A stretch of 4,273 bases of DNA, taken from the IMG/VR virus record IMGVR_UViG_2695420650_000010; one strand, given 5' to 3'. The notes beneath the pieces are model-generated. The model was not told the origin of the DNA. It saw only the letters and a program-made list of their open reading frames with translations, and made no database searches. This document shows positions 26 to 4,273 of this stretch, piece by piece. Position 1 is the first letter of the stretch. Each line of letters opens with the position of its first letter. This DNA is from a virus. Taxonomy: Duplodnaviria; Heunggongvirae; Uroviricota; Caudoviricetes. The position numbers and the translations under genes were made by a program.

Positions 26-214
26 TTAAAAAAAGAACAAATGGTAGTGTCCGCTATTGCCAGTACACCTCAGGGTATAAGGGGTTATGGCCACCGGACT
101 ACCAAACGGCTGCCAGCCCTCTTTCAGTTTATGTGTCAGCTTTTCCGCAAGATCTGACGGCGGCGCCGCCCTGACAACATCATAGTGTTTAAATGCCATG
201 GTTCTTTCCACCAT
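26..214 (-). CDS. hypothetical small protein of the phage late region (62 aa from ATG at 214; 57 aa if the internal ATG at 199 is the true start)
   Basis: Open frame on the late-operon strand, stop TAA at 26-28. The internal ATG at 197-199 is preceded by GGTGGAAAG (weak Shine-Dalgarno-like, about 7-nt spacer); the first ATG has none. The sequence MAFKHYDVVRAAPPSDLAEKL... feels familiar as a small conserved lambdoid-prophage protein, but I cannot name the family with certainty. Confidence 0.5.
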   Translation of the reverse strand: MVERTMAFKHYDVVRAAPPSDLAEKLTHKLKEGWQPFGSPVAITPYTLRCTGNSGHYHLFFF

Positions 215-459
215 CTGAAAAATAATTCTTTAAAATACCTGACATGTAATACAGAAAAAACACAAAACCATACCTTAAATAAAAACCTGATTATCAAGCA
301 GATATGCATGGATAAACTACAAGACGAGATATAAACCACCCTGCATTTAAATAAACAATAAACAACATCAGAAAAATAATTCTGCTCTATGGTTTACATT
401 CAAAAATATCATTTATACTTTTCAGAACATCACCAGCAAGGCATAAACAAGGAAACTAA
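215..459. promoter_or_regulatory. AT-rich divergent intergenic region with a 13-bp direct repeat GAAAAATAATTCT (217-229 and 371-383)
   Basis: Lies between the minus-strand ORF starting at 214 and the plus-strand ORF starting at 460. The exact 13-mer occurs twice, one copy abutting each flanking gene's upstream region. Confidence 0.35.
393..419 (+). promoter_or_regulatory. candidate sigma70 promoter for the plus-strand ORF at 460
   Basis: TTTACA (393-398), 15-nt spacer, TATACT (414-419). The spacer is short, so this is weak. A Shine-Dalgarno AAGGA (449-453) sits 6 nt before the ATG at 460. Confidence 0.25.
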
Positions 460-1229
460 ATGAAGTGGATTGTGATTGATACAGTTATCCAGCCATCATG
501 CGGAATATCTTTTTCAGTCATATGGAGTAAAATAAAATTAATAATCTGGTATCAATCGGATGCTTTCTTACCTCCTGAAAGTATATTTACACTGACTCAC
601 ACAGGCATCATGCTCAATAACAAAGTGCTACCTGTAACCATTTACAACGTAGTACCATTCAATAAAACATTCTGGAATTCAATCAAAAATAGCCAGGAAT
701 GCCCTACAAATACAGATAANNNNNNNNNNNNNNNNNNNNNNNNNNNNNNNNNNNNNNNNNNNNNNNNNNNNNNNNNNNNNNNNNNNNNNNNNNNNNNNNN
801 NNNNNNNNNNNNNNNNNNNNNNNNNNNNNNNNNNNNNNNNNNNNNNNNNNNNNNNNNNNNNNNNNNNNNNNATATAGCACCCTGACTGATACTGTAGTAC
901 CTAAGGTTCCAGAAACTGTGATGTATCNNNNNNNNNNNNNNNNNNNNNCAGTCATATGGAGTAAAATAAAATTAATAATCTGGTATCAATCGGATGCTTT
1001 CTTACCTCCTGAAAGTATATTTACACTGACTCACACAGGCATCATGCTCAATAACAAAGTGCTACCTGTAACCATTTACAACGTAGTACCATTCAATAAA
1101 ACATTCTGGAATTCAATCAAAAATAGCCAGGAATGCCCTACAAATACAGATAACGTATTGAATGAATGCTTTAATAACCGTTGCACTCTGCAAATATGTC
1201 CTTATGGACTAAAACAACAAAGTCCATAA
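460..1229 (+). CDS. hypothetical Cys-rich small protein; frame runs through two N gaps and a duplicated 205-bp segment (about 111 aa if the duplication is collapsed)
   Basis: ATG at 460 with AAGGA Shine-Dalgarno; stop TAA at 1227-1229. The frame is open across AT-rich DNA, where stops are frequent by chance. The C-terminal part has C-x10-C-x4-C-x4-C spacing ([23 protein letters not shown]). The minus strand here has no comparable ORF. True length is unknown because of the gaps. Confidence 0.4.
515..719. repeat. direct repeat copy 1 (205 bp), matching 949-1153 by eye
   Basis: Visually identical sequence at a 434-bp offset, ending exactly at the start of the N run. Confidence 0.8.
720..871. 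other. assembly gap (run of N)
   Basis: Contiguous n characters. Confidence 0.95.
928..948. other. assembly gap (run of N)
   Basis: Contiguous n characters; the 56 bp at 872-927 between the two gaps occurs nowhere else in the window. Confidence 0.95.
949..1153. repeat. direct repeat copy 2 (205 bp), matching 515-719 by eye
   Basis: Starts immediately after the N run and keeps the same reading frame as copy 1. Confidence 0.8.
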
Positions 1230-1248: not shown

Positions 1249-1285
1249 CAAAATCAATATAAACAGCCCCTCCGGAGAGGGGCTG
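1249..1285 (-). terminator. rho-independent terminator-like hairpin for minus-strand transcripts
   Basis: 9-bp GC-rich stem CAGCCCCTC / GAGGGGCTG (1264-1272 and 1277-1285) with 4-nt loop. On the minus strand it is followed by the U-rich tail TTTATATTGATTTTG; on the plus strand there is no U tract. Confidence 0.5.
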
Positions 1286-1676
1286 GAGAGTGGCGCTATG
1301 TGCCATTGCATGGTGCCGGGTGCCTCCCGGTGAATTCAGTACCAGCACCTGAATCCGCGATTATCCCATATACCTACTCGCTGATTGCCCCTCCGCACAG
1401 GGGGATTCACCATGCCAGTTTCTTTTAACAAACTCCCCGCAAACCAGACAACAGTCAACCGCCTGAATTGTGAAGTATTTAAAAATTTCTCCCGCTAACT
1501 GATACCCGGCTAACAGTCTGGCGTTTTCTTTTTCAGCAACGGGAAAGCAACAACCACCACACCCGCCACCAGCACACCGTCAGCCAGCACTGACATTATC
1601 CGGCTGCTGCAATGCCATTCACAAAAACAGTAAGCAATCACTTTTTACCGTAACAGGTGATAATCCAGATATGTAT

Positions 1677-2583: not shown

Positions 2584-3642
2584 TCATCCGTTCTGGCTGA
2601 CTAAATCCTGTACTTCCCGAACCGTCTGCTCAAAACGTTCAGTCTCCAGCTCAACGCCAATTGCACGACGCCCGAGCGCCAGTGCCGCTTTCACTGTCGA
2701 ACCCAACCCCATGAAAAAATCTGCAATCAGGTCACCCGGACGACTGCTAGCGCTGATTATCTGCTGCAGCATTTCTGCCGGTTTTTCGCACGGATGTTTC
2801 CCGGGATAGAACTGCACCGGTTTATGCGTCCACACATCGGTATACGGCACCTGCACCGTCACGCCAAAATACCGCCGCAGATGTTTATATTCACTCAGCA
2901 GCTCCGCATACTGCCGGTTCAGTGAGGTATACGTATCCACCAGCTGGTGGTGGAGCTTTTCCAGTTCACCACGCCGATGCTTCTCTTCTGCCACCCGGGC
3001 AAACAGCGCCTGTAATTTCAGATAATCGCTTTCATTCGGCAACTGCCACTGACCGGCACTGAACCAGTGCGACACCATGTTTTTCTTTCCTGTGGCATCT
3101 GCAATCTGTTTTGCCGTTATCCCCAGGGCAGCTCGCGCATCACGAAAGTAAGAAATCAGCGGGGCCATCACATGCTGTTTCAGTGCACTGCCCTTCGCCG
3201 CATACCCGGCATCTTTCGGACGATACGGCCCCTGATAATGTTCCGCGAACAGAATGCGCTCTGTGGCGGGGAAATACGCCCGCAGGCTTTCCTTGTTGCA
3301 TCCGTTCCAGCGTCCGGACGGCTTCGCCCAGATAATATGGTTCAGCACACTGAAGCGTTCACGCATCATGATTTCGATATCAGATGCCAGGCGATGACCA
3401 CAGAACAGGTAAAGACTTCCGGCAGGTTTCAGCACCCGCCAGAACTGCGCCAGACACTGGTCCAGCCACTTCAGGTAATCATCGTCGCCCTTCCACTGGT
3501 TATCCCAGCCCTCAGGCTTCACTTTAAAGTACGGCGGGTCCGTGACTATCAGGTCAACAGAATTTTCGGGTAACGACCGGATAAATTCCAGGCAGTCGGC
3601 GTTGATTAACTCACAACTGGATATTTTTACAGTATTAAGCAT
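2584..3642 (-). CDS. DNA methyltransferase, beta-class N6-adenine or N4-cytosine (N6_N4_Mtase family), apparently orphan
   Basis: 352-aa ORF, ATG at 3642, TGA at 2584. Motif IV DLIVTDPPYF near the N-terminus; HPCEKP (HPxxKP-type) and AdoMet-binding motif I DFFMGLGST near the C-terminus. That order is typical of beta-class amino-methyltransferases (CcrM, M.HinfI, M.RsrI-like). No endonuclease gene is adjacent in the window. Target site cannot be inferred. Confidence 0.92.
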   Translation of the reverse strand: MLNTVKISSCELINADCLEFIRSLPENSVDLIVTDPPYFKVKPEGWDNQWKGDDDYLKWLDQCLAQFWRVLKPAGSLYLFCGHRLASDIEIMMRERFSVLNHIIWAKPSGRWNGCNKESLRAYFPATERILFAEHYQGPYRPKDAGYAAKGSALKQHVMAPLISYFRDARAALGITAKQIADATGKKNMVSHWFSAGQWQLPNESDYLKLQALFARVAEEKHRRGELEKLHHQLVDTYTSLNRQYAELLSEYKHLRRYFGVTVQVPYTDVWTHKPVQFYPGKHPCEKPAEMLQQIISASSRPGDLIADFFMGLGSTVKAALALGRRAIGVELETERFEQTVREVQDLVSQNG

Positions 3643-3734: not shown

Positions 3735-3774
3735 GGCTGGTGGGTGCCCCTAACACCCACCNCCCCCCCCAGCC
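3735..3774. repeat. inverted repeat GGCTGGTGGGTG / CACCCACC...AGCC interrupted by a poly-C tract (poly-G on the coding strand) containing an ambiguous base
   Basis: Left arm 3735-3746; right arm 3754-3761 plus 3771-3774, split by c-n-cccccccc at 3761-3770. The minus strand is G-tract rich (G8, GGTGGG, GGGG). Confidence 0.6.
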
Positions 3775-3999: not shown

Positions 4000-4117
4000 G
4001 TCTTTTCCTTTTCCGGTTAACGTGACACACCAATAACTCTTGTCGAAAAAGCCAGCAAGCTGAAAGACAGGTATTCACCGCCACCAGCGCGTTTACTGTA
4101 CTGACGCGATTTCAGTC

Positions 4118-4143
4118 ATAAAAAACCCGCTCGGCGGCGGGTT
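4118..4143 (-). terminator. rho-independent terminator (tR'-like) for minus-strand transcripts
   Basis: Stem CCCGC / GCGGG (4126-4130 and 4137-4141), extendable by two A-T pairs, followed on the minus strand by six U (complement of A 4120-4125). Sits about 45-65 nt downstream of the candidate promoter. Confidence 0.6.
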
Positions 4144-4190
4144 GTAGAAACTCTTCTAACGTCAGGCATAAAACGCCCATCGTTATGACG

Positions 4191-4218
4191 AATTTACCAC
4201 AGATTCCGGAAAAATCAA
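4191..4218 (-). promoter_or_regulatory. candidate late promoter (pR'-like) with extended -10
   Basis: On the minus strand: -35 TTGATT (complement of 4213-4218), 16-nt spacer, TGgTAAATT (complement of 4191-4199). As I remember it, the lambda pR' -10 region is GGGTAAATT with -35 TTGACT. Position between the end of an upstream ORF and a terminator fits pR'/tR' architecture. Confidence 0.45.
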
Positions 4219-4273
4219 CCTTGTTACCTAGTTACCTTTTTTAACTGCCGCTCAGCCCATGCTTCTTCAATAT

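Follow-up and report, generated by a model that had tools for sequence, protein, structure and literature searches.

An antisense iraL gene for a probable RssB anti-adaptor of the IraM family, located between Q and the lysis genes in a lambdoid prophage

The iraL gene and the assembly of its locus

The stretch of DNA analysed here (4,273 nucleotides (nt), hereafter the window) comes from the IMG/VR virus record IMGVR_UViG_2695420650_000010, assigned to the Caudoviricetes. On its plus strand, positions 460-1229 hold an open reading frame (ORF) that a preliminary description, made from the sequence alone, had presented as a cysteine-rich gene of no recognisable identity. The ORF is very probably iraL, which belongs to the RssB anti-adaptors of the IraM/IraL/RssC family and is carried by a lambdoid prophage as a moron in antisense orientation, between Q and the lysis genes. 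The gene is already known and has been characterised experimentally, and its RefSeq name is IraM. It starts with an ATG at position 460, which is preceded by the Shine-Dalgarno sequence AAGGA (449-453) and a 6-nt spacer (AACTAA, 454-459), and it ends with a TAA stop codon at 1227-1229. The start, the stop and the ribosome binding site were thus as first described, but the continuous extent of 770 nt was not, owing to gaps and a duplication within it.

Four runs of N are present in the window, at 720-871 (152 nt), 928-948 (21 nt), 2259-2299 and the single position 3762. The ORF listing splits the interval 460-1229 into two frames, 460-885 and 918-1229, both of which traverse N. The segments 515-719 and 949-1153 form a perfect duplication of 205 nt (100% identity). 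Alignment with the finished genome of Escherichia coli 042 showed that window positions 70-719 and 949-2248 are colinear with a single locus, with a 205-nt overlap, and that the two copies of the duplication map onto the same bases (4001-4205) of an uninterrupted gene. The 042 locus has no counterpart of the 56-nt island (872-927) that separates the two gaps. This island is 100% identical to positions 3001-3056 of a prophage region of E. coli ATCC 11775, which is the equivalent slot without iraL. In that prophage, the island sequence is found immediately upstream of a hairpin region in common with the window.

When 460-719 is joined to 1154-1229, a 336-nt ORF encoding 111 amino acids (aa) is obtained. 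The exact stitched protein was found on at least 1000 public contigs, which validates this reconstruction. The 770-nt span is a scaffolding artefact of the assembly, and the true gene has 336 nt. Accordingly, positions 460-719 hold the 5' part of the coding sequence (CDS; nt 1-260, codons 1-86), for which the identity with 042, the structure 8TWD and the Foldseek comparison described below predict an RssB-binding PmrD-like beta-barrel and helix. The 3' part (nt 261-336, with the stop codon) lies at 1154-1229, where the stitched translation equals the public protein. The segment 949-1153 is a redundant copy of CDS nt 56-260, that is, an uncollapsed overlap of contig ends. The 152-N run is a scaffold gap and not a biological feature, its flanks overlapping on finished genomes; the 21-N run at 928-948 is a second scaffold gap, and the plus-strand island at 872-927 is an orphan contig of an iraL-less sibling prophage slot, misplaced by scaffolding. 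We read the gap pattern as the result of short-read scaffolding through paralogous prophages, in which overlapping contig ends remained unmerged and a small foreign contig was placed in the gap. Since the island derives from the iraL-less variant of the slot, the source genome probably has two or more related lambdoid prophages, of which one contains iraL and another lacks it. The iraL-less variant, of the ATCC 11775 type, was found in 346 complete genomes.

Identity, expression and function of iraL

The preliminary description had proposed profile and structure searches, and both led to the IraM family. The reconstructed protein matches the NCBIfam model NF007393 (IraM) at 162 bits, against a cutoff of 121, with residues 1-110 of 111 aligned to model positions 1-113 of 114. 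The only solved relative, PDB 8TWD (IraM residues 1-78 in complex with RssB), was matched at an E value of 6e-31. The 042 copy is annotated as IraM in RefSeq (WP_000871291.1), and C_RS06710 of E. coli CFT073, the locus known as iraL or c1429, encodes a product with that accession. The window protein differs from this CFT073/042 IraL at one residue, having S74 instead of L74 (110/111 residues the same); the S74 allele is common, and is represented in UniRef by IRAM_ECO27. At the nucleotide level, the CDS is identical to the 042 copy at 334 of 336 positions (258/260 over the first 260 nt). Direct alignment with CFT073 showed two mismatches in nt 1-260, the last 76 nt being compared with the 042 copy only. 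The published distinction between iraL and iraM asks for at least 95% nucleotide identity to CFT073 iraL over the whole coding region, and for an iraL promoter with at least 96% identity to the CFT073 upstream region (PMC4045071). Both the coding identity and the promoter, with its mapped start, were found in the window sequence.

The structural comparison agrees with this assignment. A 97%-identical representative of the window protein served as query for the profile search and for the AlphaFold (AF2) model, in which the core has predicted local distance difference test (pLDDT) values of 85-96 with a 41-sequence alignment. Foldseek superposed this model on 8TWD chain A with a template modelling (TM) score of 0.90 and a root-mean-square deviation of 1.3 Å over 78 columns. 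Of the 14 IraM residues in contact with RssB, ten are identical in the window protein and the other four are conservative replacements (T13S, L75I, H63N and I64V). A full-length model match, a PmrD-like core in residues 1-78 and conservation of the RssB contacts, which were the tests applied for membership in the anti-adaptor family, were therefore all present.

The promoter that had been proposed for the gene is backed by published mapping. The 5' end of the CFT073 iraL mRNA, determined by rapid amplification of cDNA ends (5'-RACE), was published as ACATCACCAGCAAGGCATAAACAAGGAAACCA (PMC4045071). This sequence matches window positions 427-458 at 31 of 32 bases, a match obtained in none of 200 shuffles, and the 126 nt from -127 to -2 are 100% identical to CFT073. 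Because the RACE-mapped end matches and the upstream sequence is identical to that of CFT073, the transcription start site (TSS) is predicted at window position 427, which would give a 5' untranslated region of 33 nt (427-459) that includes the Shine-Dalgarno sequence. A sigma-70 promoter was assigned in CFT073 from predicted -10 and -35 elements (PMC4045071). In the window, the -10 element TATACT (414-419) lies 7 nt upstream of the TSS, and a -35-like TTTACA (393-398), identical in CFT073, precedes it with a 15-nt spacer; the alternative -35-like GTTTAC (392-397) would make the spacer 16 nt. A consensus promoter scan that required a spacer of 16-18 nt did not flag the iraL promoter, because of its short spacer. 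The promoters proposed by that scan at 352-380 and 511-538 were discarded as unsupported by the mapped TSS.

Regarding regulation, iraL mRNA or protein was reported to increase in a CFT073 fur mutant (PMC7157518) and after a shift from 23 to 37 °C (PMC12890032). No Fur box was found within three mismatches, the best match (11/19) being the same as shuffles give, and the effect of the fur deletion is probably indirect. A PhoP-box-like direct repeat (TGTTTA-N5-TATTTA, one mismatch) is located on the minus strand at 348-364, approximately 70 nt upstream of the TSS of iraL; an equally good site was present in 21 of 200 shuffles, and it is regarded as a weak lead. A 21-nt direct repeat, with 19 of 21 bases in common, was also noted. 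One copy (209-229, CACCATCTGAAAAATAATTCT) overlaps the start of the ORF with a DUF1737 domain, and the other (363-383, CAACATCAGAAAAATAATTCT) covers -64 to -44 in the promoter of iraL. This repeat could be due to chance or could be a shared regulatory site.

The structured 3' end that had been noticed downstream of the ORF corresponds to a strong G+C-rich hairpin at 1264-1285, 35 nt past the stop codon, with nine base pairs, seven of them G-C. The region 1225-1330 has a folding z-score of -3.2 on the plus strand, and none of 200 shuffles folded as well. A run of T follows the hairpin on the minus (late) strand only, for which reason it resembles a leftward terminator and not a canonical terminator of iraL. 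It probably acts as a terminator or insulator for leftward transcription coming from the side of the tRNA genes and the DUF3927 ORF, which a Q-modified polymerase would override; for the iraL mRNA it may at most stabilise the 3' end. In the ATCC 11775 slot (approximately 2536-2652 and 3047-3136) two ORF translations share the ending ...MVPGASR, suggesting that the hairpin element of window 1264-1330 is repeated there.

The function of the gene was established in CFT073 and Shigella sonnei, where deletion of iraL lowers the level of sigma-S (RpoS) in log phase (PMC4045071). The same study found that iraL is transcribed in mid-log phase and that IraL influences how much sigma-S is present and how stable it is, and it assayed plasmid-borne iraL under its native promoter in K-12. 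IraL co-purifies with RssB and, in two-hybrid assays, contacts RssB's N-terminal domain (PMC4045071). For IraM, a core made up of a beta-barrel, a hairpin and a helix is built by residues 1-78; it contacts RssB at the 4-5-5 face, at the segmented helical linker and at helix alpha-8, and RssB is thereby kept open but is unable to bind sigma-S (PMC10844676).

By analogy with these systems, the window protein would block RssB in the same general way, raising RpoS in growing lysogens. In an exponentially growing lysogen, iraL would be transcribed from its own sigma-70 promoter (TSS at 427), the 111-aa protein would bind RssB, and the log-phase level and stability of RpoS would increase, as demonstrated for near-identical sequences. 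From the IraM-RssB structure and the conservation of contact residues, it can be proposed that residues 1-78 would adopt the PmrD-like beta-barrel and helix, that this core would dock on the 4-5-5 face of the RssB receiver, the helical linker and helix alpha-8, and that RssB would no longer load RpoS onto ClpXP.

Several observations weigh against this assignment or limit its reach. The intactness of iraL in this assembly is taken from finished genomes, since the gene is interrupted by gaps here, and on the iraL strand the hairpin lacks the form of a canonical terminator. [quoted passage not shown] In two-hybrid assays, IraL contacted only RssB's N-terminal domain, whereas IraM contacted both domains (PMC4045071), and because of this difference in domain usage the binding mode derived from IraM may not fully transfer to IraL. 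A related doubt is whether the gene is truly disrupted here, be it by an internal duplication that makes it a pseudogene or by a foreign insertion at codon 86, and hence encodes no functional anti-adaptor. The window as given does show, within the gene, two N-runs, a repeat of 205 nt and 56 unrelated nt. However, the repeat copies are 100% identical and both align with one and the same stretch of a reference gene that has no interruption; the 56-nt piece comes from the corresponding slot in a sibling prophage that lacks iraL, as expected of short-read scaffolding through paralogues; and the other gap, at 2259-2299, has a like flanking duplication. Furthermore, 1445 complete genomes carry at least 80% of a query formed by the promoter and the 5' CDS as one uninterrupted match. 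A real disruption is very unlikely in view of these data.

The fold of the protein raises the question of whether it could be a PmrD-type connector that protects another response regulator, such as phospho-PmrA, and does not act on RssB. PmrD structures have the same small beta-barrel and C-terminal helix (4HN7, with a TM score of 0.74, 2JSO and 2RQX), PmrD shares the logic of a small protein binding a response-regulator receiver domain, and the family carries precomputed PF11183 (PmrD) tags of unknown strength. Nevertheless, identity to the PmrD structures is only 12-20%, a Pfam scan gave no PF11183 match at E <= 0.01, and the IraM-specific NCBIfam cutoff was passed, so that a PmrD orthologue was rejected. 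PmrD also differs in its target (PmrA and not RssB), in its length (81-88 aa) and in having no four-cysteine tail, whereas in the window protein the RssB contacts are conserved, and experiments have demonstrated RssB binding and sigma-S stabilisation for a protein one residue apart from it. A PmrD-type role is thus highly improbable. It is barely conceivable that the cysteine-rich C-terminus makes the protein a secreted or disulfide-stabilised, toxin-like conversion factor. Four cysteines do fall within 22 residues, and the gene adjoins the stx slot of Shiga toxin (Stx) phages, but the N-terminus is not signal-peptide-like (in the AlphaFold model, residues 2-11 form the first strand of the barrel) and homologues act on RssB in the cytoplasm. 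The cytoplasm is a reducing compartment, in which stable disulfides are unlikely. The secreted toxin was rejected on account of the N-terminus and the cytoplasmic RssB target of the homologues, and the signal-peptide predictions that had been proposed are unnecessary for a protein of this kind. The identification as an IraL-type RssB anti-adaptor is therefore preferred.

The conserved four-cysteine tail

The cysteine spacing noticed in the preliminary description is real and very strongly constrained in the family. In the reconstructed protein it reads C81-x10-C92-x4-C97-x4-C102, and the four codons lie on the plus strand between 1134 and 1199 (C81 at 1134-1136, C92 at 1167-1169, C97 at 1182-1184 and C102 at 1197-1199), with C81 also present in the first copy of the duplication at 700-702. 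All 16 family members compared at 53-97% identity keep the four cysteines, together with P82, I101, P103 and G105. An exhaustive profile search gave 95 representatives, 48 of them at E <= 1e-10. Distant conservation was evaluated in 39 full-length representatives that are 20-51% identical to the window protein (median 32%). In this set W72, C81, C97 and C102 are conserved at 100%, and C92 and P103 at 97%; in the sole exception at C92, the cysteine is shifted by two residues. The only invariant columns of the 41-sequence alignment are M1, C81, C97, C102 and P103. The tail consensus is W-x8-C-P-G-N-x7-C-x4/5-C-x4-C-P-[YF]-G, from which the C-terminal signature C-x10-C-x4/5-C-x4-C-P was defined in this analysis, not being a published criterion; it is present in the window protein and is 97-100% kept across 40 representatives. 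Ten distant sequences were looked up, six of which had a named source (Salmonella, Citrobacter, Enterobacter, Cronobacter, Intestinirhabdus and Dryocola), all called IraM.

Residues 79-107 of IraM were cut from the crystal construct, the full-length protein having been proteolysed, and the tail was described as less conserved and flexible, with the truncated protein still giving a stable complex with RssB (PMC10844676). No mention of the cysteines, of a metal or of a role for the tail was found in the papers searched. Zinc-finger and zinc-ribbon Pfam models, searched at E <= 10 with the window tail and three distant tails, gave no match above cutoff; the sole Pfam tail match was zf-CCCH on one distant tail, at E 0.31 and 11.5 bits against a cutoff of 20.5. 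The pLDDT of the tail was below 50 with 15 sequences and 48-56 with 41 sequences in AlphaFold, which models no metals.

It is plausible that the tail (81-102) is a separate module, forming a small metal site or a redox-sensitive element that serves something other than docking on RssB. More specifically, and as a tentative proposal, it might bind zinc or an iron-sulfur centre or respond to redox state, be dispensable for RssB docking, and control the stability, the activity or a second interaction of the protein. The rise of iraL in the fur mutant (PMC7157518) is a loose hint of an iron link for the tail. If the proposal is true, the copies borne by prophages and Stx phages would link the stabilisation of RpoS to the metal or redox state. 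The function of the tail is the only novel angle of this locus.

Prophage neighbourhood and moron character

All the neighbouring genes (Q, a methylase, tRNAs, and the DUF3927 and DUF1737 ORFs) are on the minus strand, so that iraL is antisense to the late genes, as had been described. The order along the minus strand is the 3' end of Q, a phrog_331 ORF, the methyltransferase, a tRNA with a CAT anticodon, two tRNA-Arg genes, a phrog_2873 ORF, DUF3927, the antisense iraL and DUF1737. The 3' end of the antiterminator Q gene is located at 4224-4273; window positions 4118-4273 align with positions 5483-5638 of the 042 locus, where the Q CDS starts at 5589. Between Q and the methyltransferase there is a 65-aa minus-strand ORF (phrog_331). 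The N6/N4 DNA methyltransferase gene (2584-3642; Pfam PF01555, 7.9e-42) lies between Q and the tRNAs, as in Stx phages. The single N at 3762 falls within a C homopolymer (cacccaccNcccccccc) in the intergenic region between the methylase and the phrog_331 ORF, and is probably a base-calling ambiguity.

The tRNA block (2141-2543), also found in CFT073 and in Stx2 phages, comprises a tRNA-Arg(TCT) at 2141-2217, a second Arg copy cut by the N-run 2259-2299, and the tRNA with the CAT anticodon at 2468-2543. A 99-nt repeat of tRNA-Arg genes (95% identity) surrounds that N-run. Its left copy (2150-2248) runs on into the T-arm of a normal second tRNA-Arg, as in CFT073, and its right copy (2300-2398) runs on into a tRNA-like stretch at approximately 2381-2460 that is present in E. 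coli 042 too. ARAGORN made no call for this stretch, and RefSeq has no annotation at that place in 042. The flanks of this gap suggest, once more, joined contigs of different sibling prophages.

Directly after the tRNAs, at the would-be stx position, there is a 117-aa ORF (1677-2030) that matches phrog_2873 at 3.8e-70, has no Pfam match and is unannotated in the RefSeq entries of 042 and CFT073. It is followed by a 43-aa DUF3927 ORF (1510-1641), detected by the Pfam scan and assigned to phrog_1470, which is described as 'TciB-like inhibition of cell division or resistance to colicin'. This TciB-like ORF is a candidate second small moron in the iraL slot. The DUF1737 ORF (26-214; Pfam PF08410, 1.5e-15) is the first late gene downstream of the slot. 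Its continuation beyond the window edge into holin and lysis genes was confirmed in 042, CFT073 and phage vB_EcoS-640R1; the order in the 042 prophage, the potB prophage of CFT073 and this phage matches that of the window and extends into holin, lysozyme and Rz.

The G+C content of iraL is 34.5%, against 53% in the methylase gene and 49-53% in the flanks, and the ATCC 11775 prophage lacks iraL between colinear flanks. With its own promoter, a hairpin, low G+C content, and presence or absence between colinear flanks, iraL fits the definition of a phage moron. The earlier suggestion of a lysogenic-conversion factor holds only in a broad sense, for a self-expressed gene whose product stabilises RpoS. 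A lack of conservation in related prophages, which would have spoken against a functional gene, was not seen: the promoter and 5' CDS were detected in 1446 of 5426 complete E. coli genomes (~27%), with up to three copies per genome. Such recurrence, like that of the exact protein on public contigs, goes far beyond chance.

The closest characterised relative is IraL of CFT073 (Hryckowian et al., mBio 2014, PMC4045071), with 110 of 111 residues and a CDS ~99% identical to that of the window, the same promoter and mapped 5' end, and a shared prophage order of Q, tRNAs, DUF3927, antisense iraL, DUF1737 and holin. The two differ in residue 74 (L in CFT073, S in the window) and in the interval between Q and the tRNAs, which contains an IS200 in CFT073 and the DNA methylase module in the window prophage. 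IraM of K-12 (YcgW/ElbA; 8TWD, PMC10844676) belongs to the same family and fold, with ~62% identity, conserved RssB-contact residues and an identical C-x10-C-x4-C-x4-C spacing. However, its locus adjoins e14, it is induced by Mg2+ starvation while IraL is expressed in log phase, its reported usage of RssB domains is unlike that of IraL, and its 107 aa are without the final QQSP of the window protein.

A paralogue was also found in Stx2 and Stx2c phages (Stx2_EH2201 'iraM' and phage 2851), whose protein is 73% identical to that of the window. It is likewise antisense, with the Q, methylase and tRNA module upstream and lysis genes downstream. In the Stx2a phage Stx2_EH2201 the order is Q, a small ORF, methylase, three tRNAs, stx2A, stx2B, antisense 'iraM' (6001-6324 of the region), nanS-p and holin. 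The paralogue is therefore located between stx2B and nanS-p, whereas the phrog_2873 and DUF3927 ORFs take up the stx position in the window. The gene had been placed at the toxin position, but these comparisons locate it beside the toxin slot, the Stx2 phage copy lying just downstream of stx2B and coexisting with the toxin. About 40 records of Stx2 and Stx2c phages carry the IraM paralogue, many of them without annotation under it, and no functional study of the Stx-phage copy was found in the literature.

For annotation, these results remove an apparent unknown, since the ORF is a characterised modulator of the stress response whose odd length is an assembly artefact. The iraL gene lets a lysogen keep RpoS high during growth, a trait that has been linked to the niches of uropathogenic E. 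coli and Shigella (PMC4045071). The stx2-adjacent paralogue, 73% identical and often unannotated, may merit attention in the stress biology of enterohaemorrhagic E. coli.

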